From Candidatus Eiseniibacteriota bacterium (GTDB taxonomy: Bacteria; Eisenbacteria; RBG-16-71-46; CAIMUX01; VGJL01), in the NCBI GenBank assembly GCA_041946735.1, contig JBHGAY010000003.1:128001-192000 (forward strand): a DNA stretch of 64,000 bases, read 5' to 3'. Position 1 is the stretch's first letter. Each line of letters starts with the position of its first letter. The notes beneath the pieces were generated by a model. It worked only from the letters and a program-made list of their open reading frames with translations. It had not been told where the DNA came from and did no database searches. A program made the position numbers and the translations under genes. Positions 1,236 to 48,210 of this stretch are shown piece by piece.

Positions 1236-1916
1236 ATGAACAAGTCGCTCTTCATCGAGTCGCTCTGCCTCCTTGGCGTCATCTCGTTCTGCGCGGCCGT
1301 CGCCGGGCCGGCCTTGGCGGGCGCTACTCGAGCCACGATCCCGGACGGCGCGGTAATCGTTTCCCCGCACGATGGCCAGTCGCGGGTGCCGTGTGACGTC
1401 GAGATCCGTTACGACGACGGAGAGGACGACTCCCCGGATTCCGGGCCGGTGCTCGGCTGGTCCAGCGAGACCGAGTATCAGTACCTGGGGGTGATCTTCA
1501 CCGCACCGGTGGGCGAGGACTTCCTGGTGCAGAGCGCGAGCTGGTACTCCGACTTCTGGGTGTTCGAAGGCGACGTCGACGTGACCGCCTACGAGATCAA
1601 CGATCCGGCGAACACCGCGACCGAAACGCTCTACATCGATGCCGGTGGGACGTATGCGGTCGAGTTCTCGACCCCGATCTGCGTTCCGGGTGGGACGGAC
1701 TACGTCGTGATGCTCTGTCCCGGTCACTGGGTGGAAGGCGTGCTTGGAGAGGACTGGGACGAGCCGGACTACCGGTCCTACTTCTCCAGGACGACCTGCG
1801 ATCCGTTGGTCAACTACGGGCCGTCCGACTTCATGCTCTGGTCGTGCGTGACTCCCTGCGGGCCGACATCGGTCCGGTCGGGGAGCTGGGGAAGGATCCG
1901 GACGATGTTCCGCTGA
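1236..1916 (+). CDS. Secreted protein with C-terminal WG..R motif
   Basis: GGAGGT RBS, signal peptide MNKSLF..ALA, YDDG-type beta domain, ends PTSVRSGSWGRIRTMFR. Confidence 0.8.
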   Translation: MNKSLFIESLCLLGVISFCAAVAGPALAGATRATIPDGAVIVSPHDGQSRVPCDVEIRYDDGEDDSPDSGPVLGWSSETEYQYLGVIFTAPVGEDFLVQSASWYSDFWVFEGDVDVTAYEINDPANTATETLYIDAGGTYAVEFSTPICVPGGTDYVVMLCPGHWVEGVLGEDWDEPDYRSYFSRTTCDPLVNYGPSDFMLWSCVTPCGPTSVRSGSWGRIRTMFR

Positions 1917-1981
1917 TCTTCCGCGGCCGGTCGATCGACGATGCGCGTGATCAGGGAAGAAACACGCAACGGGGGTATTTG

Positions 1982-3466
1982 ATGCAATCCAACCGGAGTC
2001 GAGCGTTCTGGCCGCTGTTCTTGTACATTGTCTTGATCTGTGCGTGCGCGCCGGCGGCATTCGCTCAGGACCCGGGATCCGGCCCATTCGAGATACGGAC
2101 CGACGTGCCCTGCCTCACCAACGCGCAACGAGAAGCGATCGTGGCGGAGATCTCCCGCAGCGAGGCGATGCTGCAACGCGCGGGCCTTCTCCTTCCCGCC
2201 GATCCGCTTCGTGTCGTTTCCTTCGACTGGCCATTGAGTCCCTGGAACGGACTTTCCGACTACGGCTATCACGGTATCTCGGCGCTGGTCGATCACGATC
2301 CTTCCTATCCGGATCACCTCCGGGATTACGAGTGCGGCACGCGGACGTACGACCAGGCGAATGGCTACAACCACCGGGGGACAGACTTTTTCACCTGGCC
2401 CTTCTCCTGGTACAAGATGGACCACGACCAGGTGGCGGTCGTGGCGGCGGCGCCCGGTCAGATCACCCTGAAGTCGGACGGCCACTACGATCGCAACTGC
2501 GGCACCGGCGCCGACGTCTGGAACGCCGTCTATGTGCGCCATGCCGACGGGTCGACGGCCTGGTACGGGCACATGAAGAACGGTTCGCTCACCTCGAAGC
2601 CGGTCGGCGCGCTCGTCGAAGCGGGAGAATACCTCGGGATCGTGGGCAGCTCCGGCAATTCCACCGGGCCGCACCTCCATCTCGAGGTATACGACGCCGG
2701 GGGACACCTGATCGATCCATGGGCCGGCCCGTGCAACGGGACGATCGAGCAATCGTGGTGGACGGACCAGCGCCCGTACTACGACTCCGCCGTCAACGCC
2801 GTCCTGACGCACTGGATGCCCCCGTCCTTCCCCCCCTGCCCGCAGACCGAGGATCCGCGAACGAGCGACGTCTTCTCGCCGGGCGCCGTCGTCTACTTCG
2901 CGGCCTACTATCGCGATCAGCTCCAAGGGCAGCTGAGCGAGTACACCGTCCGGCGTCCGGATGGGATGCCGCAGTACCACTGGACGCATAGCAGCCCGGC
3001 TCCGTACTACGCGGCGTCCTATTGGTACTGGAACCGCGTGATTCCTTCGGGCGCTCCTCTCGGGGTGTGGACATTCGAGGTCGTGTTCGAGGGCGAGACG
3101 TACACCCACTCCTTCGTCGTCGGCACCGAGGCGGACGTCAATGCAGGCGAGCTCGCCGGCGCCGGCGTTCCCTGGATCCATCTCCAAGCCTTCCCCAATC
3201 CTTTCGAGGGGGAGACGAAGGTGAGTTGGGATCGAGCTGCTGGCGACGGCGAAAGGGCCGGCGCTCGCGCGGGCGGTCGGACCGTCCTCGCAATCCACGA
3301 CGCTTCGGGCCGCCGCGTGCGCGTGTGGGCCCTGTCTCCCGGAGCCCAGTCGTTCTTCTGGAACGGAGAGGACGAGTCGGGGCGCAGACTCCCGCCCGGG
3401 ATCTACGTGGCTCGGCTGGACGCGGGCGGCGCGACGGGGACGTTGAAGCTGATCGTGTCGCGATGA
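1982..3466 (+). CDS. Secreted M23-family metallopeptidase with FlgD-Ig/T9SS-like C-terminal domain
   Basis: Signal peptide; HRGTD (HxxxD), YGHM and GPHLH motifs; C-terminal FPNPF...WNGEDESGRRLPPGIY. Confidence 0.88.
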   Translation: MQSNRSRAFWPLFLYIVLICACAPAAFAQDPGSGPFEIRTDVPCLTNAQREAIVAEISRSEAMLQRAGLLLPADPLRVVSFDWPLSPWNGLSDYGYHGISALVDHDPSYPDHLRDYECGTRTYDQANGYNHRGTDFFTWPFSWYKMDHDQVAVVAAAPGQITLKSDGHYDRNCGTGADVWNAVYVRHADGSTAWYGHMKNGSLTSKPVGALVEAGEYLGIVGSSGNSTGPHLHLEVYDAGGHLIDPWAGPCNGTIEQSWWTDQRPYYDSAVNAVLTHWMPPSFPPCPQTEDPRTSDVFSPGAVVYFAAYYRDQLQGQLSEYTVRRPDGMPQYHWTHSSPAPYYAASYWYWNRVIPSGAPLGVWTFEVVFEGETYTHSFVVGTEADVNAGELAGAGVPWIHLQAFPNPFEGETKVSWDRAAGDGERAGARAGGRTVLAIHDASGRRVRVWALSPGAQSFFWNGEDESGRRLPPGIYVARLDAGGATGTLKLIVSR

Positions 3467-3536
3467 CTGCCGGGATGGGGAAGTAGCACCGAAGATCCGC
3501 GGCGAAGGGGTCGCGCCGAGGATTCCGGGCGGACTC

Positions 3537-5534: not shown

Positions 5535-5557
5535 GGCCTGCTCGTGTGCGCTACCAA

Positions 5558-7990
5558 TCAGTACCGGTACGCCACCGTCACTCCGATCCGCCTCGGCGGG
5601 CCGAGATAGGCCTGCTCGCCTCCGCGGTACTCGTAGGCGGAGATCACGTAGCGGCGGTCCAGAAGGTTCTTCGCCCAGAGGTAGACCTCGGCCGTCCTTC
5701 CGGAGATCCCGACCCTTCCGCCGACGAGCTGGCGCGCTGCGCTCCTGTAGAGATTCATATGCGACATGTAGTACGGATCGATGTACTGATAGTCGGCCGC
5801 GACGATCGCCTTGAGGTCACGCCCTAGCAGGCGCGCCGGCATCAAGTACTTCGCGGAGATCGCGGTCGTGAAGCGAGGCGTGAACTGGAGGTCGTTGCCG
5901 GCGTAGTCGTACACGACATCGATGCCGTCCTTGGTCTCGTGGAACTCGAACTCCTCGAACTTCGCCTCGAGCAACCCGAGGTTTCCGGAAAGCGTCAGTC
6001 CGGCGAGTGGAACGGCGTTCACCTCCATCTCGAGCCCCTTGCTGGTAGTCCTTCCCGCGTTCGTGATCGTCTGGAGCGGGCTCGACAGGTCGCCGACGGT
6101 CAAGACCTGCTGTTGTCGCCAGTCGATGTAGAAGGCATTCGCGTTCAGCCGGAGGGTGTTCTCGAGGAAGGACGACTTCCAGCCGACCTCGTAGTTCCAC
6201 GCGAACTCCGGGCCGTAGTACGCGATCGGCTTGTCCGTGCTGTTGAAATCGCCGCCATGCGTTCCCCGGGAAGCCGATGCGTAGACCATGTCCGTTTCGT
6301 CAAGGCGGTAGGAAAGCGCGAACCTGGGTGTCACGAAGTCGAAGTCCTTGGTCTGCTTGCGGCGGCTCACGCCGTCGAAGGGTGGCGGAGCCGGCTCTCC
6401 GTTATACAGATAGCGCGTCTCGTTGTCGATCTCGATCGTCTGTCTCTCGATGCGAGCGCCTGAGGTGAATTCGAGTCTCTCGAAGAGCGTGTACGTGCCC
6501 TGGGCGAATCCCGCCAGCCCCTGCGTCGTCAGGTCGCCGGTCGTCGCCTGGTAGATCGGCCAGATCGGCACGTGATTCGCGCGCGCCCACATCTCCCCGA
6601 GGATCGCGCTGAAATCCTGGTCCTCGAGATCGTTCGAGTAGAAGGCGCCCGCCATCCACCGGAGGCGTGAAGGCCTAGCTGGGAACTGGCATCGAACCTC
6701 CTGCGACCAGCCTCGGTAGGGCGTATTCGAGAGGAGACCGATCAAATCGAGCGGGGAGAAGTCGGCATCGTAAAGCCAGTTCATCCCTGACGTATTCTGA
6801 TAGGCGGTCGTCGACAGGAGGTCGATGCCGGCCCCCTTGTACCTTAGCTTCAACGAGGCGATCGAGTTGTGCTTGTGGATCTTCGAGTCGACGTCCGTCG
6901 CGAACCGGTACGGGTCCTCCATTGCAGCGGCCGGGTCGGTCGCGAACGGCCAGATGCTTTCCTCGATCTGCTCATTGTTGGCGAAGATCTCGGCGCTGAA
7001 GGACTCCGACGGGAAGAAGCGGAGGTCGAGGGTCCCGCCACGCCCCTTGCTCCAGCCGGCGTTCTTATCCAGGTATGTGTTGGTGTAGTAGCCGTCCCGG
7101 TTCGCATCGTAGACGGAAGCGCGAAGGAAGAGCCGGTGCCGGACCAACGGCGCGGAGACGCCGAGCGAAACCTTGGAAGCGTCGTAGTTCCCGTACTCCA
7201 TGCCCACAGAGAGTCGCGTCCGATCGCTCGGCTTCTGCGAGACGATGTTGACCACGCCGGCCAGTGAGTTCCGACCGTACAGCATGCCTTGCGGGCCTCG
7301 AACGATCTCGATGCGGTCGACGTCGTTCAAGTACATCGGATTCAGGCCGTAGCCATAGATCGGCACGCCGTCGTAGTAGAAGAGGCTCGTCGCCTCGAAC
7401 GGGGTCGCGGGCACAATCCCGCGGATGCTGACGAAGTCGGTCATGTGCGATCCAGTGTCCGCAATGATCGAGTTTGGCGAGAGGCCGGAGACGTCGGTGC
7501 GGTCGCGGATCGACAAGTCGCCGATCTTCTCCGCGGTGATCGCGCTGACAGCGACCGGAACCGTCTGCAGGTTCTGCTGGACCCTTGCTGCCGTGACGAC
7601 GATCTCCTGGAGGTTCACTGGCACGCGGTTCAAGGTGAAGTCGATTGCCAGGGTATCGGACCCCGCAGGAACCGTCATTTCCCGCCGGACCGGCTCGGCT
7701 CCGATCATTGAGACGATGACGAGATAATCCCCAGCGCGGATATTCGCGATGAAGTAGTGCCCCGATGCGTCGGTCAGAACTCCCATTGCAGTCCCATCGA
7801 GATACACCGACGCTCCCTGGGCCGGCTCTCCCTTCGAGTCCGTCACTCTGCCGCCAACCCCTGCGCCCCACGCGGGTGCCGCCGCGTACAGGACAAGGAC
7901 CAGGAGAAAAGCGGCAGTCACAGCCCGGATCAGAACGCGCACCCCAGCCCCGGTCTTGGGATCCATGGCGACTCTGAGCTTCGGCTTCAT
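5558..7990 (-). CDS. TonB-dependent receptor with N-terminal carboxypeptidase-like regulatory domain
   Basis: GRVTDSKGEP domain, EIVVTA TonB-box region, plug motif IEIVRGPQGMLYGRN, C-terminal ..PRRIGVTVAYRY; ATG overlaps the kinase stop (TGATG). Confidence 0.92.
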   Translation of the reverse strand: MKPKLRVAMDPKTGAGVRVLIRAVTAAFLLVLVLYAAAPAWGAGVGGRVTDSKGEPAQGASVYLDGTAMGVLTDASGHYFIANIRAGDYLVIVSMIGAEPVRREMTVPAGSDTLAIDFTLNRVPVNLQEIVVTAARVQQNLQTVPVAVSAITAEKIGDLSIRDRTDVSGLSPNSIIADTGSHMTDFVSIRGIVPATPFEATSLFYYDGVPIYGYGLNPMYLNDVDRIEIVRGPQGMLYGRNSLAGVVNIVSQKPSDRTRLSVGMEYGNYDASKVSLGVSAPLVRHRLFLRASVYDANRDGYYTNTYLDKNAGWSKGRGGTLDLRFFPSESFSAEIFANNEQIEESIWPFATDPAAAMEDPYRFATDVDSKIHKHNSIASLKLRYKGAGIDLLSTTAYQNTSGMNWLYDADFSPLDLIGLLSNTPYRGWSQEVRCQFPARPSRLRWMAGAFYSNDLEDQDFSAILGEMWARANHVPIWPIYQATTGDLTTQGLAGFAQGTYTLFERLEFTSGARIERQTIEIDNETRYLYNGEPAPPPFDGVSRRKQTKDFDFVTPRFALSYRLDETDMVYASASRGTHGGDFNSTDKPIAYYGPEFAWNYEVGWKSSFLENTLRLNANAFYIDWRQQQVLTVGDLSSPLQTITNAGRTTSKGLEMEVNAVPLAGLTLSGNLGLLEAKFEEFEFHETKDGIDVVYDYAGNDLQFTPRFTTAISAKYLMPARLLGRDLKAIVAADYQYIDPYYMSHMNLYRSAARQLVGGRVGISGRTAEVYLWAKNLLDRRYVISAYEYRGGEQAYLGPPRRIGVTVAYRY

Positions 7991-10900
7991 CAGCTCCTCC
8001 TCACCTGGCGATCTCCGTCTTGATCGCTCCTCCCTCCCGCCGTGCGATCGAGAGGAGCGAATCGGCAACTGCCGGCCGCGGTGAACGAGCCCTTGCTGGG
8101 TGTGATGCTGGTGTTTCCCGGCCTGTTCCCCCAGCACTTCACCTCGAATCGTCCGTCGACTCCCTCGAATCGTCCGGTCCCCTCGACCGCAGTGGAGAAC
8201 GCCCGGCTCTCGTAATGGTCTGGCGTCATCAGCGTCATCTCGCCTGTATACGCCAGCCGGATCTGCGCTCCATCCCTGGCGGTGCAGGTTCCCACGCCCT
8301 CGGAGAAGTGGCCGGTCGCCATGTTGTAGCGATGGCTTATCTCGACGGTGCACGGACCGAAGTACGTCGCGTGCCCCTCGAACCTGCCGGTCGAGATGAG
8401 CTCGTCCTCCGTCACAGGCACGCTCGAGAACGCTCCCTCCCCATACACGAACCACGGCAGGGTCAGCGAGGCGAGCCACTCCCGCCCGCGCGAAAGGAAT
8501 GCCACCGATTCGTCACGGGCTCCGATCCGCGCGAGATGATGCCCGAGAGAGATGAGCACCTGCGCCTCGAGCTGCGGATCCCCCGCGTCCTTTGAAACAT
8601 CGAGCGCCTCATCGAGCGCCGCGCGTTCGCGGTCCGGGTGCTGCAACAGGTCGAGCCGCTCCGCCTTGCGCAGCAGGATCTCGATCCGGCGGGCTCCGGA
8701 AAGGAGCCCGCGACAGCCCAAGGCCATCTCGATCAGATCGAGCGCCCTCTCGCTCGAGAAGCTCTGCTCCAGACGCCTCAGCGCGGGCTCCAGATGCGGC
8801 AAGGCTCGTTCGCCGCGCCCTCCCTTCAGGAAGTGCTCGCAGACCGCAGTCACGTCTTCGGAACCGCGGATCTCCAGCGCTTCCCCGATCGATGCGTGGT
8901 ACGCCTGTCGCAACGGTTGCGAGAGACTGCCGTAGAGCGCCTCCTGCACCTGATGGTGATCGAAGACGTAGTTCGAGCCCGAAGAGCGAACGAGCCGGTG
9001 ATGCCGCTCGATCTGCGACAACAGCTTCAGGACGGCGAGCGTGGGGAGTCCCGTCGCCTCTGCGACGAGCAACGGGTCGAACGAGAACCCGCAGCAACTC
9101 GCCGTGTCCAGCAGGTCCCGCTCCTGCTCGGAGAGGCTCGATACCCGTGCTTTCACCAGGTCGAGCACCGAGGAGGGGATCTCGATCTTCTGGATCTTCT
9201 TCGAGATCACCCAGGTGCCGTCAGGAAGCATCCTCAGGTACTGCCCCTCCCGCAGGTCCCGTACAATCTCGAACGCGAAGAACGGGTTGCCGTCCGACTT
9301 CGCCGCGATCTTGTACGCCAGCTCCTCCGCGAGCGATTCCGAGCGGAACGCGTCGACCAGCAGCCTCGTCAGGTCCTTCGGCCCGAGCCGGGAGAGGGCC
9401 ATCGACCGGGCGTGTTCGAGCCGCTCGATGCTTGCACGCCAGCTCTCCGGGACTCCTGGACGGGACGTGCCGATCAGAAGGACCCGATCCTCCGGGATGG
9501 CGAGCGCGAGCGACGCGAACATCGCGCGCCCCTCCTCGGGAGCGAAGTGCAGGTCCTCGATCAAGACCACCGTCGGCCGCTCGGCTGCGAGCGCCCGGGT
9601 CGCCTGGACGAACGCCGTCTGCATGGAGTCCTTGGTCAGCGGCTCCTTCCCCTCGGGTGTCGGCTCCCCCTTGAGGAGAGCGGCGAAGGCAGACGCCAGC
9701 GAGGGCGTGAGCGAGAGGTAGCCTCGGATCCTCTCTTCCAGCCCCTCGGATCCGAACTGCTCCCGGTAGGCCGTGGACCATGCGCCCGAAACCGTTGCCG
9801 CCCCGCCGGGCGGATAGCTGCCAAAGAGGAAGTTCAAGTCCTCGCCGGCGGAGTCCAGCTCTCCGATGAACTCGTCGATCAGCCGGGTCTTCCCGATCCC
9901 CGCCTCTCCTTCGACTAGGAGGACCTGGCCGTGGGCGGCCTTGACGTCCGCGAAGATGACGCGCAGTCGCGCGAGATCATCCTCCCGGCCATAGATCGCC
10001 GTCTCCCGCGGCATCCGGACCCGCCGGAGCGGTCGCTTTGTCTCGATCCGGATCGCCTGCGCCCGGGCGTTCCACCATTCGCTCTTGTCGCCGTCCTCGA
10101 GGACGTGGATCAAATCGGTCGCCGACGCGAAGCGATCCTCCTTGTCCTTCGCGATCAGCTTCTGTACGACCTCCTCGAAGAAAGGAGAAAGTTGCGGATT
10201 CAACTGACCGACCCGGCGCGGCGGCTCTTCGAGCACCCGTCTCAGGACGACGCGAGGATCCCCGTCTCGATATGGATGTCTTGCCGTCGAAAGCTCGTAG
10301 AGGATGATGCCGAGGGCGTAGAGGTCCGCTCGGCCGTCGATGTCCGGACCGTCCGAGCGGAACTGCTCGGGCGCGGCGTACTCAACCGTCCCGATGAAGC
10401 TCCCCGTCTGGCTGAGGCGCGCGGTCTGTTCCGTAGGCCGTGCCACTCCGAGGTCCATCACCTTGACCGCGTGGTCCGCCGTGATGAGGATGTTGTCCGG
10501 TTTCAAATCCCGATGCACGACTCCGGCGGCATGGATCGCCGCGAGCCCCCTCGCAATCTCACGGCCGAGGTGACGGCACAGTTCCTCCGGAACGCGATCC
10601 AGCTCTTGGAGGAGAGACCGCAGCGTCTGCCCCTCGACGTATTCCATCACCAGGAAGTTGAGCTGACGACCCTCGTGCACAATCGCATCGCAATCGATGC
10701 AGCGGACGACGTTGGGATGGCGGACCGACTTGCCGATCTCCGCCTCGCGCAGGAAGCGCTTGAAGAAGCCGGCCTTCTCGAGCAGGTGGGGATGGATGAT
10801 TTTCAGAGCGACAGTCGTGCCTGCGGCGAGCCCGGGCGCTTTGCCAACGACCTCGGCCCGGTAGACCTTTCCCATCCCGCCGGAGCCCAACTCATCACCG

Positions 10901-18173: not shown

Positions 18174-18791
18174 CTAGGCGCGCTTCTTCCTGGCGCGCAT
18201 CCGCGCTGCGGAGCCTACGAGCCCGAGCCCGAGAAGCAGGAGAGATGTCGGTTCCGGAACCGGCCCGACCATGTCTTGACCCTGTCCCGAGCCCGCATAG
18301 TCGAACCAGCCGGCCGTCGAGCTCTGGCTCTGGGCGGTGGTCAGGTAGCCATCTACCTGGCTGCCGAGGTCGCCTGAGTACTGGAAGGCTCCTGCTGCGC
18401 GATCGGCCTCGTCATCCGCGGTCAGTTCCCAGAGCGCGATCTGGAGGGCGGCGGCATCGGTCGACGTCGATGTCTGGCCGTAGACGTTGTAGAGCCAGGC
18501 GATCTGCTGTCCGTTCCGAGGCATCTCCGTGGTGCTGCGGACGTTCACGTCGTAACAGAACGGCATCGACCCGAGGAAGTGATCGAGATCGACGCAGTAG
18601 ATCTCCGGCAGGGAGGTGCCGTTCAGCTCGGCGTCGAAGCTCCCCGCATAAAGGTTCAGATCCTGACCGAGGTAGTTGACCCAGACGGCCTGGTAATGGT
18701 GCATCCCCTGGATACACAACGGGATGGCGCCGGCGATCTGGGGAGCGGCAATCAGGGCCAGGAGGATGAGGATGGTGATCCGGGTGCGCAT
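18174..18791 (-). CDS. PEP-CTERM sorting domain protein
   Basis: Signal peptide; YCVDL..AALQIALWE domain; VPEPTSLLLLGLGLVG followed by a basic tail. Confidence 0.92.
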   Translation of the reverse strand: MRTRITILILLALIAAPQIAGAIPLCIQGMHHYQAVWVNYLGQDLNLYAGSFDAELNGTSLPEIYCVDLDHFLGSMPFCYDVNVRSTTEMPRNGQQIAWLYNVYGQTSTSTDAAALQIALWELTADDEADRAAGAFQYSGDLGSQVDGYLTTAQSQSSTAGWFDYAGSGQGQDMVGPVPEPTSLLLLGLGLVGSAARMRARKKRA

Positions 18792-21994: not shown

Positions 21995-24900
21995 CTAACG
22001 GGCGAGGATCAGACGAGCATGCACGACGCGATCGCCCGCCTGCAACCGCGCGAAGTACACCCCCGGACTGAGGCGCCGCCCGCCCCCGCTCCCGCTCAAT
22101 CCGGCCGTTCCGGCTCCGCCTGCCCACGCGATCTCGTGCGTTCCAGCTTCCACGTGACCGTCGAGGAGTGTGGCGACCCGCCGTCCGGAAACGTCGTGAA
22201 CGGTCAATCGGACGGCGCCGGGGGAGGGAATGTAAAAGCGCAGGCGCGTGTCGTCCCGTAGCGGATTCGGGAAGACGCGCTCGAAGCGAAGATCGAGCGC
22301 GCCGGCGCCTGCCGTCACGTCCGTCGCCTCCACTCCCGTCGGCGCTCCCGCGGTGCGGAAGTCCGCGTCGACCGGTCCGTTCCCGGCGAGAGAGAGCCAG
22401 GGAGTCGGCGAAAAGTATGGCGATTCCGACTCGAACCGCACACGCCAGTGGTAGGGCGTGTCGCCGGCGAGGCCGGAGACGATCTCGTTGATACCGACCC
22501 GGCTTCCTTGGCCCGGGATCGGCTCGCCGCTGTCGACCCAGTTCGTCGTGAGAGTCGGACCGCTCCACGTTTCGCCGAGCGGGGAGAACTGGTAGCTGGC
22601 GCGCACCCGCCCCCGGCCGAAGGCGCTGCGCCCCAGCATCCGGATCCGCATCTCGCCCGCCTCCTCGGAGCGTCCGAGGAGCGCGAGTCGCGAGCCATCG
22701 TCGGGCTGGCGCATGTGCAGCCGGCGGGCGGCGCCCGGCCCGAAGTCCGAAGCGCCGGTGCGATTGCCGTAGAGGAGGGCGAGTAGTCCCTCGCCTTCCG
22801 ATCCGTTCGTCGCGTCCGGCGCGCCGGCGACGAGATCCGGGAAGCCGTCGCTGTCGATGTCGCCGTATCCGGCGATCGCCGCTCCGAAGCGGCCGTCGCC
22901 TCCGTTCAGGATCGCAAACGGGGTGCTCACGATCCCGCTGGGCGAGCCGGCGAAGACATAGATCCGTCCTTCGAAGTTCGGCCCGTAGTGAGGCGCGGCT
23001 GCGGCAATATCGGAATAGCCGTCGGCGTTGATGTCGCCGATTCCTGCGACCTTCTCGCCGAGGTAGGCGCCGGCAATGTTCGGCTCGAAGGCGAAGTCGT
23101 GGAGTCCATCTACCCCTGCGGGGCCGCCGTGATAGACATAGACGGCCCCTTCCTGGTCCTGCCCGTTCGTGTATCCCGAGGCGCCGACGACGATGTCGCT
23201 GTACCCGTCGCCGTTGACGTCGCTGGCGGAGTCGATCGAGATGCCGAACTTCATCCCGGGAAAGCCGCGCCGGATCGTCTGGGAAGGACTGGGGTCGAGA
23301 TCTCCAGGCGACCCGAAGAAGACGAAGACGACCCCTTCGTTCCCCTGCGCGGTGTCATAGAGCGGAGCGCCTGAGATCACATCCGAGTAGCCGTCGCCGT
23401 TGACGTCGCCGGCGCAGGCGACCGAGAAGCCGGCGTTCGCCCCGTCCTGGTTCCCTTCCCAGCCGATGACCGGCGCCGACTGCAAGCCGCCCGCGGAGCC
23501 GAGGTACAAGAGCGCGGCCCCTTCATCCGTCTGAGGATTGTCATGGTCCGGCTTGCCAATGATCAAGTCGCCGTAGCCGTCGCCGTTCACGTCCCCGGCC
23601 GATGCTGCCGACCAGCCGAAGTCCGAGTCCGCCTGCTGGCCGCGCGCAGACCAGGAAGGATCGGCGGACAGTCCCGTCGCCGAGCCGTGATGAACCCAGA
23701 CCTTCCCCTCGTTCGCGAGTACGTCGTCATAGCCGGGAGCGGTGACCGCCACATCGTCGTACCCGTCGCCGTTGACGTCGCCGGCCGAGGCAATGACGTG
23801 GCCGTAGAAGGCGTTCGTCTGATTCCCGTCGCGGTACCAGTCCGCGGGGTTCGAGATCCCCTCGTATCCGCCGAGCCAGCAGTAGGCTCGCCCCTCGTTC
23901 GTCTCGCCGGCGTCGTAGAACCAGGCGGCCCCGAGAAGATCGGAGTAGCCGTCCCCGTTGACGTCGGCCATGCCGACCGCGTGCCCCATTCCCGCTCCGG
24001 CCTGGTTGTTCTCGGCGGTGAAGTCGGCGTTGCCGTAGTGGTCGGCGAAGGCAGCGAAGATCTGAACGCGCCCGCGATTGCTGCCGCCGGCATCGGCGAA
24101 GGGAGCGCCCACGAGGATGTCGGAGCGTCCGTCGCCGTCGACGTCGCCCGCCGTAGCGACCGCCCAGCCGAGCCCCGCAAACGCCTCGTCGGAATCGATC
24201 GCGAAGATGCTCGAGCCGGGACCGGTCGGAGAGCCGCAGTAGGCGAGCACCGAGCCCTCATCCTCCTGGCCGGCGTCCAGGTTCGGCTCGCCGAGGATCA
24301 CGTCCGCGAAGCCATCGGCGTTGACGTCGCCGGCGGTCGCGACCGCGTCGCCCAGGTAGGTGTCGCTCTGGTTGCTCTCCCATTCGCGGTGCGGAGTCCC
24401 GGCGAGTCCGGTCGCGGAGCCGAGGTAGAGGACCACGTGGCCTTCTCCCACCTGACCGTTGTCATAGGCGCCGGCGCCGATCAGGATATCGGAAAAGCCG
24501 TCGCCGTTCGTGTCGCCGGCGAATGCGAGTCCCGAGCCGAAGTACTCATCCGCTTGCACACCGGAACGGAGCCAGTCGGCAGTGTCGTCGACGCCCGCAG
24601 CGCTGCCGTGATAGCAGTAGACGGCCCCTTCGTTCGTCGGACCAAGAAGTCCCTCGTAATAGACCGCGCTGACGAGGACATCATCGTAGCCGTCGCCGTT
24701 GACGTCGCCGGCGGTCGCGACACGCCACCCGAACGCGTCCCCCGCACCGGATCCGTAGATCGTCCGATGCGGCGAGGATGCGAGACTGTCTGGCCCCCCG
24801 AGGAAGATCTGCACCCGTCCCTGCTCGGTCAGGTTGCTCGTGTAGAACGGGCTGGCGACGATCACGTCGTCGTAGCCGTCGCCGTTGACGTCGCCCGCCG

Positions 24901-25453
24901 TGGAGACGCAATGACCGAGTCGTGCGCCGTCCTGCCCCCCTTCCCGGGACCAGGCGATGCCACCGTTGACTCCCCCGGAGGAGCCGAGGTAGAGCCACGC
25001 CGCGCCCTCGCTGTCGTTGCCGTTGGAGTAGTACGGCGCGCCGATGATTACGTCGTCGTAGCCGTCGCCGTTTACGTCACCCGCGGTGGAAACCGAGTAG
25101 CCGAACTGCGACAGCCCGGCTCCGAAGGCCGACCAATCGGCGGAGTCTCCGGGGCCGTTGGGGCCGCCTTGGTAGACGCGCGCCCGGCCGTTGTTGTTGC
25201 CGAACAGCGCGTCGGCGAGCGGCTCTCCGACGATGACGTCCGCATACCCATCGCCGTTCACGTCGCCTGCGGTCGAGACGGACCAGCCAAGGTTCGCGCC
25301 GTTCTGGGATCCGTCGAGCGTCCACAGAGGCGTGGCTGCGATCCCGGCGAGCGATGCGGACGGCGCCAGGATGGCGGCGGACAGAAGCGCCGCGAACGCG
25401 GCGATCCATGCGGCCCCGGAGCGCGTGTCAAAGGCGAACAGCTTGCGTTGCAT
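21995..25453 (-). CDS. Secreted FG-GAP (integrin-alpha beta-propeller) repeat protein with FlgD-Ig CTD
   Basis: About 14 repeats of G.SV.TAGDVNGDGY.D.IVGAP; C-terminal FPNP..HDVSGRRV..PGVYFARL. Confidence 0.92.
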   Translation of the reverse strand: MQRKLFAFDTRSGAAWIAAFAALLSAAILAPSASLAGIAATPLWTLDGSQNGANLGWSVSTAGDVNGDGYADVIVGEPLADALFGNNNGRARVYQGGPNGPGDSADWSAFGAGLSQFGYSVSTAGDVNGDGYDDVIIGAPYYSNGNDSEGAAWLYLGSSGGVNGGIAWSREGGQDGARLGHCVSTAGDVNGDGYDDVIVASPFYTSNLTEQGRVQIFLGGPDSLASSPHRTIYGSGAGDAFGWRVATAGDVNGDGYDDVLVSAVYYEGLLGPTNEGAVYCYHGSAAGVDDTADWLRSGVQADEYFGSGLAFAGDTNGDGFSDILIGAGAYDNGQVGEGHVVLYLGSATGLAGTPHREWESNQSDTYLGDAVATAGDVNADGFADVILGEPNLDAGQEDEGSVLAYCGSPTGPGSSIFAIDSDEAFAGLGWAVATAGDVDGDGRSDILVGAPFADAGGSNRGRVQIFAAFADHYGNADFTAENNQAGAGMGHAVGMADVNGDGYSDLLGAAWFYDAGETNEGRAYCWLGGYEGISNPADWYRDGNQTNAFYGHVIASAGDVNGDGYDDVAVTAPGYDDVLANEGKVWVHHGSATGLSADPSWSARGQQADSDFGWSAASAGDVNGDGYGDLIIGKPDHDNPQTDEGAALLYLGSAGGLQSAPVIGWEGNQDGANAGFSVACAGDVNGDGYSDVISGAPLYDTAQGNEGVVFVFFGSPGDLDPSPSQTIRRGFPGMKFGISIDSASDVNGDGYSDIVVGASGYTNGQDQEGAVYVYHGGPAGVDGLHDFAFEPNIAGAYLGEKVAGIGDINADGYSDIAAAAPHYGPNFEGRIYVFAGSPSGIVSTPFAILNGGDGRFGAAIAGYGDIDSDGFPDLVAGAPDATNGSEGEGLLALLYGNRTGASDFGPGAARRLHMRQPDDGSRLALLGRSEEAGEMRIRMLGRSAFGRGRVRASYQFSPLGETWSGPTLTTNWVDSGEPIPGQGSRVGINEIVSGLAGDTPYHWRVRFESESPYFSPTPWLSLAGNGPVDADFRTAGAPTGVEATDVTAGAGALDLRFERVFPNPLRDDTRLRFYIPSPGAVRLTVHDVSGRRVATLLDGHVEAGTHEIAWAGGAGTAGLSGSGGGRRLSPGVYFARLQAGDRVVHARLILAR

Positions 25454-26627: not shown

Positions 26628-28109
26628 CTACCGAATGCGGATCAGCCGGCCGGTGCCGGTTGCACCGTCGAGACGATAGAAGTAGAAGCCGGTGCCCAGG
26701 GCATCGCCTGCGTCGGTCTTCCCGTCCCAGCGGATCTCGCCGGCCCCGCCGCCGATCGGCAGCGATCGCACGATCCGCCCGGCCACGTCGAAGATCCGCA
26801 GGCTTCCGCTAGCGCCACGCGGGATCTGGAACGCCACTTGATTCGTGAACGGATTCGGCGCGCAGAGAATGCTCGTCGCGGCGCCGGGTCCCAAGTCCTC
26901 GACCCCGGCCGCCGACGCGATCCCTTGCGCGGAATAGACGCCCTGCATGAACGCACTCTCGCGGTTATCGAGCCAGGCCACGTCGAGGTTGCAGATCGCG
27001 TCGACGGTGATCACCGGTTGAAGGGCGTCCGACTGGCCGCTCGTGATCGACTCGGCCTGACCGAAGTAGATCCCATGAATGTTCATGTATCGGATGACGT
27101 TTCCTTCCGGCATGTACTCCCGCCACACGACGTGGACGTCGGCAGGGCCTTCGCCACAACGGCTGGTGGCCAGATGCGCGCCGTCCGATCCGTCGAAGGC
27201 GAGTTGGGTGAGTCCCTGCCATCCGGTGGCGCCGAGCTTGGAGTAGCAGACTCGATCCTGATTGCCGAATTCACGGACCATTACGGCGTGCACGCCACCC
27301 GTAAGGCTCACGGCGATGTCCGGATGTCGGACCGGCTCGGCTTCGTCTCCGATCACAACGGCGGTCGACCAGACACCTGCGACGCGCTGGCGATGATACA
27401 CCTGATCGGCGCCGCTCTCGTTGTCCTGCCAGAGGACGTGAACGTCACCGTTGGGGGCGACGGCGATGGCCGGCTCCTGGGCGGAATCAATGCCTTCGGT
27501 CAGCGGCTCCTGAGGCGACCAGACGGCGCCGTCCCAGTGCGAGTAGTAGATGTTGGAGAAGGTAGGCGGGGGATAGAAGTCGCCTTGCTGCCATACGAGG
27601 TGCACGGTCCCATCCGGGTCAGCGGCCAGGCGCGGATGGTCGGCCGTGCGGCCATTGTAGTCGTTGATCCGCTCGATGGGCGTCCACTCGCCGGACTCGA
27701 ATCGTCGGTAGAAGATTCCGTCCATGCCGCTGGCCCAATCCGACCAGACGACATGGACCCGTCCTTCCCGATCGACGGCGACCGCTGGATACGAGGTTCC
27801 GTCGGAGTCGGAGAGCTGCACGACCGGGTCCCAGTCGTCTCCGTGCCCCGAGCGGTAGAAGACCTGATCCCCCAGGTCCTCGCCGATCTGCTCGGACCAC
27901 ACGATGTGCACCTTCGAATCGGGTCCCGTCGCAATGGCGGGACCGGTGAGGGACCACATGGGGAAGGAGCTGATCTTGACGTCCTCCTGCCACTCGACCG
28001 CGACGGCGGAACCGGGGTGAGTGGCGGGAAGGACGCAGAGGAAGCCAAGAGCGATTGCGACCGTCGAGCAACCGGTCCGATGGCGAAACGAGGAACGTCG
28101 CGGTCTCAT
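26628..28109 (-). CDS. Secreted beta-propeller repeat protein with FlgD-Ig CTD
   Basis: Repeats PAIA..DG.VHVVW.D..IYY; C-terminal APNPF..FDVAGRIVR..WDG..GFYFYRL. Confidence 0.85.
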   Translation of the reverse strand: MRPRRSSFRHRTGCSTVAIALGFLCVLPATHPGSAVAVEWQEDVKISSFPMWSLTGPAIATGPDSKVHIVWSEQIGEDLGDQVFYRSGHGDDWDPVVQLSDSDGTSYPAVAVDREGRVHVVWSDWASGMDGIFYRRFESGEWTPIERINDYNGRTADHPRLAADPDGTVHLVWQQGDFYPPPTFSNIYYSHWDGAVWSPQEPLTEGIDSAQEPAIAVAPNGDVHVLWQDNESGADQVYHRQRVAGVWSTAVVIGDEAEPVRHPDIAVSLTGGVHAVMVREFGNQDRVCYSKLGATGWQGLTQLAFDGSDGAHLATSRCGEGPADVHVVWREYMPEGNVIRYMNIHGIYFGQAESITSGQSDALQPVITVDAICNLDVAWLDNRESAFMQGVYSAQGIASAAGVEDLGPGAATSILCAPNPFTNQVAFQIPRGASGSLRIFDVAGRIVRSLPIGGGAGEIRWDGKTDAGDALGTGFYFYRLDGATGTGRLIRIR

Positions 28110-36800: not shown

Positions 36801-37553
36801 ATGCACGTTCGCTGGATCGTCCTCCCGGTGGCCACTCTCGCTCTGTTCCTCCAGGCCGCCCCGAGCGTGGCGGAAATCGATCCCTCCAGGTTCCGGCAAG
36901 GGTCACTCTCCGGGGTGACCGACGGCCTCCACACCATCTTCACGGTGCCCCAAGGACAAACCTTCGTGCTCACGGACCTAACGTTCGACGCCAACCCGGG
37001 ATCGAACGAAAACTTGCACATCATGCTGCAGCTGAAGCGGGCGGGCGAAGTCTCCTGGAATGCGACCAGCGACATCTACACGCCTCAGGGCCAAGCGCAT
37101 CAGCTGATGCCGGTAGAGGCGCACTGGATTACCGGTCTCGCCTGGGGCCCGGGGGAGCCCGTGGCATTGGGCGTCAACGCGCTCGACCACGATTGGATCT
37201 GCTCCTGGTCCGGGTACCTCGTGCCGACGTCGCTCTCCGCCTTGGAAGACTCCGGGCCCGACGTCCCGAACGCGCGGGAATCGCTTGTTCGCCTACGGGC
37301 GAATCCCTTCCGCGCGAGTACCGAGATCGAGTTTCACATTCCGCGGTCCGGCAAGATCGCGCTGCGCCTCTATGGTCCCGATGGACGTCTCGTCCGCAGA
37401 CTCGTGGAGGAGGACGCCCAACCGGGCCAAAGGTCGATTGCATGGAACGGAGAGGACGACAAGGGCCGGGACCTGGCGTCCGGAACCTACTTCTACGAGT
37501 TCGCGCTGGACGGAGACACCATCGATTCCGGCAAGGCGGTCCTTCTGAGATAG
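36801..37553 (+). CDS. Secreted protein with FlgD-Ig CTD
   Basis: AAGGAG RBS; signal peptide; TVPQGQTFVLTD; ANPF..WNGEDDKGRDLASGTYFY. Confidence 0.82.
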   Translation: MHVRWIVLPVATLALFLQAAPSVAEIDPSRFRQGSLSGVTDGLHTIFTVPQGQTFVLTDLTFDANPGSNENLHIMLQLKRAGEVSWNATSDIYTPQGQAHQLMPVEAHWITGLAWGPGEPVALGVNALDHDWICSWSGYLVPTSLSALEDSGPDVPNARESLVRLRANPFRASTEIEFHIPRSGKIALRLYGPDGRLVRRLVEEDAQPGQRSIAWNGEDDKGRDLASGTYFYEFALDGDTIDSGKAVLLR

Positions 37554-38688: not shown

Positions 38689-40953
38689 TCACCGCACGAT
38701 CACTAGACGCGCTACTTCGGTCCTGTCCGGACCGGACACCCGGAGGAAGTAGGCTCCCGCAGCCACCGGACGGCAGCGATCGTCACGGCCATCCCAGAGG
38801 AAGCGGTGGTCGCCAGCTCGAAGAACCGTCGAGGACAGCTCACGGACGCGGCGGCCTGCTACATCGTGCACTGTTACGAGGACGTTGCCATCGATCATCG
38901 TATGGAAGCGGAGGAGCGTCTCACTCGTTCCTGGATTCGGAGATAGCGTCAGCCTGGCAGCGGAGGAGCCCCTGTTCTCCTCGAAGGAAACCGCTGAAGA
39001 TGCGTCGCACTGAACGGGCAGGATGGAGAGGCCGGCATCGCCATCGGCGACGTAGGCGTAGCCGGCCGCGACCACCACGCCGTTCGTCGATTGAGGCCTG
39101 TCGATCCCCCCGACGATCCGCAGATCCGTAGGATCGGTCACGTCGATGACCTGGAGACCGCAGGAGGCGTCGGCGACGTAGGCGCAAGCACCCGAGACGG
39201 CCACGCCTCGAGCCCCTCCGGGCGTCGGCGCGCTTCCTAGAATCTGGGGAGTGAAGGGAGTCGTGACGTTGATCACCTGCAGGCCTCCGGTGGCATCCGC
39301 GACGTAGGCTCTTCCCTCAGCGACCTCCACGTCTTGTGCCGCCCCGGGGGTGTCCGCGCTGCCGATGACGTGCGGGCTCGAGGGATCCGAGATATCGACG
39401 ACCAGCAGACCGTAAGAAGAATCGGCAATGTAAGCGTGGCCGTTCTCGACCGCCACACCAAGCGCAAGGCCCGGCGTGTCGACGCTCCCCACGATCTGGA
39501 GGTCCGCGAGATCCGCGAGATCGATCACCTGAAGGCCGGCATCGCCGTCCGCAACGTAGGCATAGGTGCCGGCGATGGCGACATCCTGTGCAGTCCCCGG
39601 CGTATTGACGGTCCCAACCAGAGCGGGCAGATACGGATCGCCGACATCGATCACCTGCAGGCCGTAACTATCGTCCGCCAGATATGCATGGCTCCCCGAG
39701 ATGTCGACGTTCCAGGAGAGTCCTGGAGTATCGTAGCCGCCCACCAACTGGGGATCTTCGGGGTTCGACACGTCGATCATCTTGAGACCTCGGGTCTCGT
39801 CGGCGACATACGCCACCATGCCGGAAACGCTCACACCACAAGCCCGACCGGGTGTGTCCCGGACGCCGAGGACCTGCGGGATGGCCGGGGGGACGATGTC
39901 GAGGATCTGCAGGCCGTAGTACTCGTTAGCAATCAGGGCGTATTCGCCCGAAACCGTCACGCCGTATGCGTCCCCCAGAGCATCTACGCTTCCGAGGATC
40001 GCGGGACTCATCGGGTCGGTGACATCGATCACTTGGGCGCCCGAGATGCCATCCGCGACGATCACCGTGTTTCCAGATACATCCACGCCGGTGGCCACGC
40101 CCGGCGTGTCCACGCTGCCAAGGATCTGAGGGTTCGTGGGATCTGTAATGTCGGCCACTTCCAGGCCGCGATTATCGTCGGCGAGGTAGGCGTAGGTTCC
40201 CGAAACGGCCACGCTCTGAACCACTCCCGGTGTGTCCAAGCTGCCGACGATCTGCGGATCCGAAGGATCCGAGATGTCAACGACCTGAAGTCCGGATGCC
40301 GTGTCTGAGACATAGGCGTAGTCGCCGGCCACAACGACGTCCCACGCTCGGGACGGTGTGTCGACGCTGCCCAGGATCTGGGGATCAGTCGGGGTCGAGA
40401 TGTCGATGACCTTGAGCCCTGCCGCATCGTCCGCGACGTAGGCGTAGTTGCCGCGGACGGCTACCGCGTACGCCTTCGATGTGGGAACGTGCGAGACGAT
40501 ATGAGGGCTCGCAGGATTCGTTACGTCGATCACCTGGAGACCTTGAGTTTCGTCCGCGAGATAGGCGTAGTTGCCCGACGCCGCGACTCCCAGGCCGTAG
40601 CCCGGCGTGTTCACGCTACCCACGATATGGGGGTCTCGGCGATTCGAGATGTCGATCACCTCAAGGCCGAAGCTGTCATCGGCCACGTAGGCGTAGTCGC
40701 CAGATATGGCGACCCGCCAGGACTTCCCCGGGGTATCCACGCCGCCGCACCAATGCACGTAGTCGCCGTAATCGATGCAGTCCGCGACGGCAACCCCGGC
40801 GCTACCGAGCCCGCCGCTGCTCACGGCGATGACGATCGCTACGAGCGCCATGCGCCCATGCCTTCCCCGGGCTGTACCGCTTTGCGCACTACGAAGACCA
40901 GAGCGCGAATACCACGTTCGGATAAGCTCGTTCATCTTCCTAGCCTCCTGCAT
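38689..40953 (-). CDS. LVIVD-repeat beta-propeller protein with FlgD-Ig CTD
   Basis: About 14 repeats of DTPG.A..V.VSG.YAYVAD...GLQVIDVS.P..P; C-terminal SPNP..HDVAGRRVR..WDGRD. Confidence 0.92.
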   Translation of the reverse strand: MQEARKMNELIRTWYSRSGLRSAQSGTARGRHGRMALVAIVIAVSSGGLGSAGVAVADCIDYGDYVHWCGGVDTPGKSWRVAISGDYAYVADDSFGLEVIDISNRRDPHIVGSVNTPGYGLGVAASGNYAYLADETQGLQVIDVTNPASPHIVSHVPTSKAYAVAVRGNYAYVADDAAGLKVIDISTPTDPQILGSVDTPSRAWDVVVAGDYAYVSDTASGLQVVDISDPSDPQIVGSLDTPGVVQSVAVSGTYAYLADDNRGLEVADITDPTNPQILGSVDTPGVATGVDVSGNTVIVADGISGAQVIDVTDPMSPAILGSVDALGDAYGVTVSGEYALIANEYYGLQILDIVPPAIPQVLGVRDTPGRACGVSVSGMVAYVADETRGLKMIDVSNPEDPQLVGGYDTPGLSWNVDISGSHAYLADDSYGLQVIDVGDPYLPALVGTVNTPGTAQDVAIAGTYAYVADGDAGLQVIDLADLADLQIVGSVDTPGLALGVAVENGHAYIADSSYGLLVVDISDPSSPHVIGSADTPGAAQDVEVAEGRAYVADATGGLQVINVTTPFTPQILGSAPTPGGARGVAVSGACAYVADASCGLQVIDVTDPTDLRIVGGIDRPQSTNGVVVAAGYAYVADGDAGLSILPVQCDASSAVSFEENRGSSAARLTLSPNPGTSETLLRFHTMIDGNVLVTVHDVAGRRVRELSSTVLRAGDHRFLWDGRDDRCRPVAAGAYFLRVSGPDRTEVARLVIVR

Positions 40954-41456: not shown

Positions 41457-42083
41457 CTAGCGATACATGTGCTTGACTTTTCCCCACGTGGACTGGTCGA
41501 CCGCCGTCGGCTCGTGGGAGCCGAAGAACTTCGCCATCCAGTAGAAGCTCATTCCAGGACCCTCCCAAAGGGAGCAATCCCAACTCCAGCAGTGGGGGAT
41601 GATGTCGCCGTAGAGCGCGAACGAGCTGACGCTCTCGACGACCACGCGGTAGTTGATGTGATACGTCTGACCGGCCTGTACGTATACCGCCGGGGCGAGA
41701 TCGACGCCCTGCCAACCGATAGCCTCCACCTGCTGGAATTCCCCGCTCGCGAGGATGGCTCCGGTCGGACAGCCTGAGCCGTCGTCCTCGCGGATCTCCA
41801 CCGACGCCGGCCCCGCGATCTCACCGGCCATGAACTCGACGCGCTCGAGATAGTAGCTCTGACCAGCGACGTACGTGGGTCCCTGGCACTGCGCGCCGTA
41901 ATGCCACGTTCCATCGAGGGGAAGATCGACATTCCATCCTTCGATGAAATCCCTGCGCCCCTCGATCGTGATCCCGAGTGGATCGCCCGACTGGATCGAT
42001 CCGTTCAGAACGCCATCTGCCGAGGCGGTCGCGGCCAAGGTCGCGACGAAAAGCGTAGCCAACACGATGAGCGAAAACCTCAT
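41457..42083 (-). CDS. Secreted protein with C-terminal WG..R motif
   Basis: AAGGAGG RBS; signal peptide MRFSLIV..ASA; ends PTAVDQSTWGKVKHMYR. Confidence 0.82.
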   Translation of the reverse strand: MRFSLIVLATLFVATLAATASADGVLNGSIQSGDPLGITIEGRRDFIEGWNVDLPLDGTWHYGAQCQGPTYVAGQSYYLERVEFMAGEIAGPASVEIREDDGSGCPTGAILASGEFQQVEAIGWQGVDLAPAVYVQAGQTYHINYRVVVESVSSFALYGDIIPHCWSWDCSLWEGPGMSFYWMAKFFGSHEPTAVDQSTWGKVKHMYR

Positions 42084-45893: not shown

Positions 45894-45896
45894 GCG

Positions 45897-45928
45897 CGCA
45901 TGTTATAGAACACTAGAACACGCGTCAA
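45897..45928 (-). promoter_or_regulatory. sigma70 promoter (TTGACG-17-TAACAT) overlapped by a palindromic GntR-type operator
   Basis: -35 at 45928-45923, -10 at 45905-45900; imperfect palindrome TGTTATAG-AACA-CTAGAACA at 45901-45920. Confidence 0.72.
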
Positions 45929-46223
45929 GCGCGCATCGCGGCGCGGGGTCGGGCGGGCGAAAGACGCATCTCCCCGCGGCCCGGCGCCGGTGACGGAGAC
46001 GAGCGGTGCGCGGGGTGGCTCCATGGGCACCTGCCGTGAACATGCGGACTCCCCGCGCACACCGAGGATCGTTCGCAATTCCCCGCAGTTATCTGCGCAA
46101 TGCGGCCGGCGGCGCAAGATCGCGCAGTCGGCATCGCCCTCATGCTTGTATCGTATGCAGGATTCACGCGCGTCGGTCTCAGGCAAGCGCGGCAGAGAGG
46201 TCGCGGAGCTGAAGGAGGCGGTC

Positions 46224-46718: not shown

Positions 46719-46758
46719 TCGCATCGGGATCCGATCCGATGGCCCCTGCTAGGGCGGC

Positions 46759-47406
46759 ATGAGCCGGCTCCGCTTCGGCATCACGATGTCAGCCGACGGC
46801 TACGTCGCCGGCCCTCGCCAGAGCTTGCAGAATCCGCTGGGCGAGGGTGGCGAGAAGCTTCATGAGTGGGTGGTCGGGCTGCGGACGTTCCTCGCGATCC
46901 ATGGCAAGGAAGGCGGAGCGACCGGTCCGGACGACGAGGTGGTCGCCGAGTCCGTCCAGAACATCGGCGCGACGATCATGGGCCGGCAGATGTTCGGCGG
47001 GGGCGATGGCCCGTGGGGGAGCGATCCTCCTTGGCGCGGATGGTGGGGCGACGACCCGCCGTTCCACCATCCGGTCTTCGTCCTCACGCACCATGAGCGC
47101 GAACCGCTGCCGATGAAGGGCGGCACGACCTTCTACTTCGTCACGGACGGCATTCGCGCGGCGCTCGATATGGCGAGGAAGGCCGCGAAGGGCAGGGACG
47201 TGAACCTGGCAGGCGGCGCCGACGCCGCTCAGCAATACCTGCGCGCCGGCCTGATCGACGAGATGGAGATCCACGTAGTCCCCTTGATGCTGGGGGACGG
47301 CGCGCGGCTCTTCGAGAACACGGAGGGCCGCCAGGCCGAGTACGAATGCGTCCGGGTCCTCGGCTCTCCATCCGTGAGCCACTTCAAGTACCGGCGAAAG
47401 CCCTAG
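46759..47406 (+). CDS. Dihydrofolate reductase / RibD C-terminal family protein
   Basis: MSADGYVAGP; IMGR.MF; VFVLTH; GGA...QQYLRAGLIDE..P..LG.G.RLF. Confidence 0.9.
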   Translation: MSRLRFGITMSADGYVAGPRQSLQNPLGEGGEKLHEWVVGLRTFLAIHGKEGGATGPDDEVVAESVQNIGATIMGRQMFGGGDGPWGSDPPWRGWWGDDPPFHHPVFVLTHHEREPLPMKGGTTFYFVTDGIRAALDMARKAAKGRDVNLAGGADAAQQYLRAGLIDEMEIHVVPLMLGDGARLFENTEGRQAEYECVRVLGSPSVSHFKYRRKP

Positions 47407-47505
47407 ATCGAAGATGAAGGGCGCGATGCCGGTGACCTGCTTGTCGGAGAAGCAGACGCTTCCGAGTCGATCTCGAGTCAGGCTCCCCTCTCTCGACTTG
47501 TCGAC

Positions 47506-48210
47506 CTATCGGTATTGGGCCCTGATCGCCGACCAGCTTACGATCCGCACAGAAGACGGCTCGATGGGATTGGTGACAACCACCTCGAACTGGCCGATGT
47601 TGTTGGACCATTCGCAACTGTCCATCGGGCCCAGATAGAGGCGGGTGGCTCCCTCGGGCACGATGATCTGTTGCTGGACGCCGTTCGATGTCAGGCCGTC
47701 GCCGATGAAGAACACCTGCTTCAACAACGGTGACAGCGTCAGGTAGTCGCGACTCTCTGGTGTGCCAAAATCCAAGCCCTCAGGAGCCGGAGTGTGATCC
47801 GGTTGATCGTCATTCAAGAAGACGCCGATGCAGCTCGATATCGGGCCGTTGAAGGTCGAAATCCCATTGTCCTCCCCATCCTCGTGAGGCGTCACATACC
47901 CGCCGTCGGGATGTTCCAGAGGATAATACGGATCTTGTGCCGTCCCGCCCGTCACGTTGAAGCTCATCGCCACGTCGGCCTCGAGGTGGAGGCCGGCCAC
48001 CACCTCTGGGGACTCGGACGGCGAAGAATCGCAAAGGATGCCGCCGTAACAACAACTCGCGGTGGCCCCGTCAGGCATTCCAGCCAGCCAGGGGTCCGAA
48101 TGGCCCGGGATCACGACCTCGACTACCTCGGCTCTCACTGGTGTCCAGCCAGATGCCATCAGCAAAGCGGTGAGGAGAGGAATCGACCACAGGACAGCGC
48201 ACGGTCTCAT
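47506..48210 (-). CDS. Secreted protein with C-terminal W(S)..R motif
   Basis: Signal peptide; PWLAGMP..PLLKQVFFIGDG..GATRLYLG..D; ends PSSVRIVSWSAIRAQYR. Confidence 0.82.
   Translation of the reverse strand: MRPCAVLWSIPLLTALLMASGWTPVRAEVVEVVIPGHSDPWLAGMPDGATASCCYGGILCDSSPSESPEVVAGLHLEADVAMSFNVTGGTAQDPYYPLEHPDGGYVTPHEDGEDNGISTFNGPISSCIGVFLNDDQPDHTPAPEGLDFGTPESRDYLTLSPLLKQVFFIGDGLTSNGVQQQIIVPEGATRLYLGPMDSCEWSNNIGQFEVVVTNPIEPSSVRIVSWSAIRAQYR

Follow-up and report, generated by a model that had tools for sequence, protein, structure and literature searches.

The window analysed here is a stretch of 64,000 nucleotides of contig JBHGAY010000003.1 (positions 128,001 to 192,000) from a Candidatus Eiseniibacteriota bacterium, whose genome, G000, comprises 4.89 Mb and is 94.8% complete. 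It contains seven genes for proteins that end in a common tail, besides genes for proteins with a type IX secretion system (T9SS) C-terminal domain (CTD) and a PEP-CTERM protein (Table 1). A first-pass annotation of the same DNA had claimed that seven secreted proteins of six domain types share the tail, always with exactly 17 residues from Pro to a terminal Arg, and had seen in it a sorting signal. All seven tails abut the stop codon in the genes named, with frames, starts and ends that agree with the open frames, and each protein has a signal peptide-like N-terminus by eye. By eye, the protein at 17435 resembles that at 25803 as a homologue would, which fits the count of six domain types. 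Rfam gave no match within the window.

The core of the tail is [TS]-W-G-x-[IV]-[KR]-x-x-[YF]-R. Its placement was tested over the 64,149 stop-to-stop frames of G000: the core lies exactly four residues ahead of the stop in 75 frames, and at none of the other distances up to 29 does it occur more than seven times; its position before the stop is therefore not due to chance. An iterated profile seeded with the seven window tails (cut-off 18 bits) recovered 84 terminal and two non-terminal copies in the genome, four of the terminal ones in frames of less than 100 aa that may be fragments. The profile over the 84 reads P59-[VT]-A61-[TV]-x3-[TS]82-W-G83-x-[VIL]81-[KR]84-x-x-[YF]80-R78, in which the Trp was imposed by the search script and is invariant by construction. 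The Gly is present in 83/84 tails, and the last motif position is also the protein end in 74/84. The fixed 17-residue length from Pro to Arg holds in the window and loosens genome-wide, where Pro is found in 59/84 tails and Arg at the last position in 78/84.

The tail is basic (+2.3) and amphipathic as computed. Its mean hydrophobic moment is higher at 180 degrees (0.66) than at 100 degrees (0.45), so the amphipathic helix proposed at first is not favoured from the sequence alone. Position frequencies reveal no hydrophobic run in the 84 tails, and PF07589 has no match on the tail proteins while it matches the PEP-CTERM protein of the window, in agreement with the earlier statement that the tail lacks a transmembrane helix and is distinct from PEP-CTERM and LPxTG signals. 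Pfam and NCBIfam, searched with whole proteins and with bare tails, have no family for it, as would be expected if it belonged to no characterised sorting family. We regard the tail motif as confirmed. No paper found by full-text search, which left supplements and most subscription journals outside its scope, describes the motif, and as far as searched it is undescribed in print.

Table 1. Coordinates of the genes discussed; positions are those of the window unless a genome (G), contig (C) or locus (L) is named.
Feature	Position	Strand	Remarks
Secreted protein, 226 aa	1236..1916	+	tail 1863-1913; no Pfam match
Secreted protein, 275 aa	13527..14354	+	Pro-rich linker, then tail 14301-14351
Secreted protein, 240 aa	17435..18157	+	tail 18104-18154
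Secreted protein, 235 aa	25803..26510	+	tail 26457-26507
Secreted protein, 241 aa	37783..38508	+	tail 38455-38505; T9SS CTD gene on each side
Secreted DUF4082 protein, 208 aa	41457..42083	-	tail 41460-41510
Secreted protein, 234 aa	47506..48210	-	W-S variant tail 47509-47559
T9SS type A CTD protein (comparison)	1844..3466	+	start uncertain; directly behind first tail gene
Large T9SS CTD protein (comparison)	21995..25453	-	start uncertain
T9SS CTD protein (comparison)	26628..27959	-	start uncertain
T9SS CTD protein (comparison)	36801..37553	+	
T9SS CTD protein (comparison)	38689..40851	-	start uncertain
PEP-CTERM protein (comparison)	18174..18791	-	PF07589, 30 bits
Barrel-lipA-lipB operon	G000:C12:141646-138364	-	barrel 640 aa
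Proteins with N-terminal motif	L231:1426-2112, L232:1420-2088, L249:241-1605, L250:730-1635, L251:721-1629		

The tail-bearing proteins (passengers) of G000 form 39 similarity clusters and are Cys-rich (3.7% versus 1.0%), acidic and small, with a median length of 244 aa against 676 aa for CTD proteins. The co-occurrence of profile matches with signal peptides, expected at first pass, was also found: a crude hydrophobicity rule calls a signal peptide on 67/77 tail proteins, 201/253 CTD proteins and 1011/3109 other genes. The earlier interpretation is partly supported, its idea of a sorting or docking tag with machinery encoded elsewhere being backed by the signal peptides, by the lack of a family match, by the exchange of the tail for T9SS CTDs described below, and by a candidate reader.

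This candidate is an operon with the order barrel, lipA, lipB, followed by secD, secF and a DUF4159 gene (secD and secF named by eye). None of barrel, lipA and lipB has a Pfam or NCBIfam match, and the barrel matches no PDB sequence (best E 0.29). About 28 alternating segments were counted in the barrel, a crude and threshold-dependent figure from 18 sequences. The barrel carries a charge of +17, lipB about -16 and lipA about -11. The order barrel-lipA-lipB is conserved across relatives. In G000, lipA ends in its own T-W-G-Y-A-R and lipB stops just short of the W-G place; a lipB paralogue on contig C7, 51% identical, carries the full tail and is among the 84 tail proteins. The same arrangement is seen in the alignments, where the lipA consensus ends in T-W-G-x-L-R and T-W-G is absent from all 23 operon lipB of alignment A1. 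Scored at 6 bits or more, the tail core is present in 28/51 lipA, 11/46 operon lipB and 47/60 lipB-type proteins without a barrel gene just upstream, the upstream barrel in this last set being judged in the fetched stretch, so that some of these proteins may come from an operon at a locus that is short. In a second phylum the lipoprotein family is found in 54/61 genomes; 20 of 24 fetched loci are the barrel operon, and in these the helix is, by eye, on lipA in 20/20 and on lipB in 0/20. A Bacteroidota-labelled locus has the same pair, lipA with the helix and lipB without it. The lipA profile matches 1,245 clusters, and among the 150 top-scoring of these, 119 finish with a [TS]-(W/L/F/M)-G-type motif; the distant matches end indistinguishably from the export tails. 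The helix is present on lipA, mostly missing from operon lipB and matched by the tail, which is the pattern of fold complementation. A word-based homologue search with lipB returned only the two G000 copies.

Structure models place the motif on an NTF2-like fold. In the AlphaFold model of lipA (Z 15.3, rmsd 2.1, 121 residues aligned) it forms helix 155-160 with a pLDDT of about 95. The true tail of the C7 lipB paralogue is modelled as helix 178-183 (pTM 0.86), with residues 181-186 averaging a pLDDT of 94 after a less certain linker with a pLDDT of 77-80. The helix proposed by the first-pass annotation is thus recovered in the models where the tail follows a lipoprotein domain. Going by these cis monomer models, the tail helix may pack on the lipoprotein domain, in a putative groove. 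Fold searches with the lipoproteins returned generic NTF2 proteins only, none of which is known as a sorting receptor, an absence that rules nothing out.

The distribution of the tail was then compared with that of the lipoproteins. The strict pattern occurs at at least 115 loci in the scanned part of the genome collection (about 340 stretches estimated), and where the title of a match gives a group, it is in nearly every case a bin of Eisenbacteria, Krumholzibacteria, Latescibacteria or 'Fibrobacteraceae'. Within the phylum of G000 it is found in 145 of 151 genomes, reversed-pattern controls giving 0-3 matches per genome, and the lipoprotein family is found in 142 of the 151. Four of the six genomes without a strict match (G016, G058, G071 and G089) were considered as lipB-positive, tail-free cases and rejected, since the profile finds variant tails in them. 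The outgroup phylum has the tail in 1/81 genomes and lipA in 0/81. A Marinisomatota-titled match was also discarded, being a single 5-kb contig with tails in 0/80 relatives. Matches titled Limnocylindria and Fibrobacter, with 32-33 tails and lipB matches, are probably mislabelled records.

Taken together, the helix on lipA, the gap in lipB and the ordered tail on lipB paralogues make it likely that the tail is a donated helix that fills a socket in lipB. That the tail binds this lipoprotein family is, on sequence and model evidence, rather probable. A complete route, in which the tail plugs lipB and its protein is handed to the operon barrel, can be proposed only tentatively, as an idea that falls somewhat short of an even chance. 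The tail protein would cross the inner membrane by Sec and fold in the periplasm with disulfides. Its tail would then be offered to lipB in trans, replacing the helix of lipA, probably in competition with it, and the lipoprotein complex would hand the small exported protein to the wide outer-membrane barrel for passage and surface display. The charges fit this route, a basic tail and barrel standing against acidic lipoproteins. A size ceiling on the tail proteins is counted in its favour as well: 2/79 exceed 600 aa, against 150/255 proteins with a CTD. So is the joint distribution of tail and lipoproteins, both common in the phylum of G000 and rare or absent in the outgroup phylum. Look-alikes of lipA and lipB occur in Bacteroidota, Ignavibacteriota and Cloacimonadota, beyond the range of the tail. 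The pair would thus be the older and more widespread of the two, and the tail a later mimic of the lipA helix.

Several observations weigh against the route. The same look-alikes extend the pair beyond the tail, and at the one Bacteroidota-labelled locus (from a single-protein metagenome scan) there is no barrel beside lipA and lipB. Eleven operon lipB have a tail-like end of their own, so that the socket is not always empty, and the stand-alone lipB paralogues may carry the tail merely as cargo. Genomes of family f13 of the phylum have between 0 and 6 strict tails each, most other families having tens, and the lipoprotein family is kept in 26/32 of them. Full SprA, the T9SS translocon component, is over the cut-off in 0/81 outgroup genomes, and co-occurrence can therefore not separate the operon from T9SS. 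A CTD gene is the neighbour of 20/79 tail genes versus 369/3269 other genes. The models are of monomers and give no contacts, so that the groove is putative. Finally, lipB has no match in G160, the one tail-bearing Patescibacteria genome checked.

G160, a Patescibacteria-titled genome, has four tail genes on large contigs, and the tail profile matches 20 of the 301 genomes of its class. Thirty-four Patescibacteria loci that were examined encode 26 distinct proteins with a terminal tail, mostly with signal-like N-termini, and the tail genes have a GC content of 0.55 versus 0.49 in their neighbours. In five proteins the motif stands directly after the signal peptide; two of these belong to the M23 peptidases, and one shows a weak match to cohesin. 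The earlier expectation that the motif occurs only at the C-terminus thus fails in part, outside the lineage of the window, and its presence at either protein end speaks for a docking peptide that is portable rather than for a signal that is cleaved and strictly C-terminal. T9SS CTDs are found in 97 genomes of the class, 15/20 of the tail-positive and 82/281 of the others (kin are not independent). This suggests that the Patescibacteria tails may be borrowed host signals, and passive gene import would also fit.

As a separate observation, a secreted Patescibacteria gene in conserved synteny has a fast-diverging body and a conserved tail. It lies between a LysM protein and a bactofilin in G160:C1 (L234), G164:C17 (L224) and G166:C2 (L229). 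The flanking proteins are 50-88% identical and the tail passengers between them 24-33%, and the last ten residues of the tails match at 8, 5 and 6 positions (p = 0.003, 0.11 and 0.016).

A first alternative is that the tail binds the same lipoprotein socket and only anchors or retains its protein, in the periplasm or at the surface, much as a dockerin does on a scaffold, with the barrel carrying something else. All the evidence for the socket applies equally to such anchoring, a genome has several lipB-type paralogues (1 to 9 matches), and a motif at either protein end, as in Patescibacteria, is typical of docking peptides. We nevertheless consider it unlikely, since a single gene for the socket, shared by about 80 clients, suggests that binding is transient, and since on paralogues the tail stands in place of a known signal for export across the outer membrane. 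The acidic N-terminal start of surface lipoproteins, by a rule taken from the excerpt of PMC12578637 consulted, is moreover found on 18/24 tail-bearing lipB paralogues and on 0/23 operon lipB.

That export signal is the T9SS CTD, and a second alternative, which we hold to be equally doubtful, makes the tail a minimal T9SS signal: a PT/GI-like cleavage site with a basic end, read by a PorV-family barrel and exported through SprA. G000 encodes SprA (494 bits) and PorU (596 bits) together with eight barrels of the PorV family that pass the cut-off, 16 C25 peptidase domains and 257 terminal CTDs, and most tail carriers have a predicted Sec signal peptide, as T9SS substrates do. GldM has no match in G000, and the control genomes gave no match either. 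Paralogues swap the tail for a T9SS CTD: for 27/84 tail passengers there is a homologue that bears a CTD (E <= 1e-8), in many cases by way of Cys-rich repeats or beta-helices common to both, none of the 257 CTDs is on a tail protein, and of ten pairs chosen for alignment most stop matching at the junction where tail or CTD begins. The two signals are thus mutually exclusive and exchanged at the same place, their genes adjoin above expectation, and the tail start P-[TV]-A-[TV]-E is similar to the PT/GI consensus for cleavage given in the available part of PMC11969387. This start scores higher on the linkers that precede CTDs than on upstream sequence (p = 2e-9) and not higher than on shuffled linkers (p = 0.11).

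The type A CTD (here of the TIGR04183, PF18962 and PF13860 types, read by PorV/SprA and cut by PorU) is like the tail in being C-terminal on signal-peptide proteins of many folds, with the same passengers in G000, a PT/x-like linker and a basic end. It is a beta-sandwich of 70-80 aa, whereas the tail has 17 residues and is a predicted helix, has no match to those three models, and belongs to much smaller passengers with another candidate reader. According to the portions seen of two papers, known CTDs are folded beta-sheets of at least 40 residues (PMC11969387) and CTD motifs specify the fold (PMC10994853). Shortened signals alongside full CTDs in one genome, as in the case of the tail, are described in the same part of PMC11969387 for Prevotella intermedia; those are three-stranded sheets of 40-55 aa that keep motifs B, D and E, all three of which the tail lacks. 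A minimal T9SS signal would also leave the lipA helix and the lipB gap unexplained.

Other T9SS-related genes were observed in G000. Besides full SprA there is a shorter, weakly matching SprA-like gene of 1111 aa at G000:C11:85200-88535, whose run also contains a PorV, an Omp85 protein and a PPIase lipoprotein; a weak match similar to it, without full SprA, is found in 70/81 outgroup genomes. A large barrel gene that by eye is TonB-receptor-like forms a triad with a CTD protein and a PorV-family barrel, and such triads recur at G000:C11:14038-21102, C13:32392-38576 and C35:18734-25940.

The weakest alternative, a basic amphipathic peptide that has no dedicated reader and sticks to membrane or wall, or else a tag for a periplasmic tail-specific protease, would suit the character of the tail and its retention in Patescibacteria without a PorV (0/5 genomes checked) or lipB (0/1) match, and is very improbable given that the near-invariant Gly, the fixed spacing from the stop codon and the match to the lipoprotein helix speak for a site of defined shape on a protein, and that the co-retention of T9SS CTDs in the same Patescibacteria suggests borrowed host signals.

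The donated-helix route can be extended to a larger proposal, which at present we think improbable. It would be a new outer-membrane export route for small folded proteins, parallel to type IX secretion and made of a plug-less barrel of about 28 strands and two NTF2 lipoproteins, gated by the lipA helix that the mimic on the cargo displaces. Patescibacteria epibionts would have acquired the mimic, with M23 wall hydrolases among its carriers, in order to enter these hosts or attach to them, and the tail would name Eisenbacteria and Krumholzibacteriota as these hosts. In at least two entire uncultured phyla, each genome has tens of proteins that bear the tag, and none of the family libraries searched has a name for it, for the candidate socket or for the barrel. 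If the donated helix is real, a helix that completes a lipoprotein would be a new principle of protein sorting, and probably a secretion channel would come with it. A culture-free test is possible, for which a 17-mer peptide and a soluble protein of 170 aa suffice. The tag is small enough that it could be useful for surface display, and by recurring in Patescibacteria it gives a sequence-based entry to the question of which hosts the epibionts use.

The rest of the window holds further modules, all named by eye. A single run at 5558-11735 has an ECF-type sigma factor, a Ser/Thr kinase and a TonB-receptor-like gene; 48569-59001, on the minus strand, has a heterodisulfide-reductase / NADH-dehydrogenase-like / NiFe-hydrogenase module with a maturation protease; and two neighbouring genes at 59554-61387 resemble Ku end-joining proteins. 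With the PEP-CTERM protein of the window and two exosortases in the genome, three C-terminal sorting signals coexist in this organism. The tail protein at 47506 has a predicted fold like that of a cluster mostly carrying PEP-CTERM (TM 0.76). BLAST found no swap of tail for PEP-CTERM among passengers within G000, using a pattern that caught only five PEP-CTERM proteins and missed that of the window.

Comparison with other known systems helps to situate the proposal. LptD/LptE is a complex of an outer-membrane barrel and a lipoprotein. Like it and like BamG/BamH, as presented in the excerpt of PMC12578637, the operon encodes a barrel with small lipoproteins that have conserved N-termini; it differs in the NTF2-like fold of the lipoproteins and in a barrel of about 28 segments that falls outside NCBIfam, Pfam and PDB sequences. 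PEP-CTERM with exosortase (PF07589, PF09721) and LPxTG with sortase resemble the tail in that a short tag marks the C-terminus of many surface proteins unrelated to one another, and the tail is set apart from them by lacking a transmembrane helix as well as any PEP or LPxTG motif, in a genome that has separate true PEP-CTERM proteins. In chaperone-usher pili, donor-strand complementation completes an incomplete fold with a short peptide from another protein. The proposed route would be similar in that a fold missing one element is completed by a peptide beside a wide outer-membrane barrel. There the peptide is a strand on an Ig fold and the partners are subunits of a polymer, whereas here it would be a helix on an NTF2 fold, donated by clients that are unrelated to one another.

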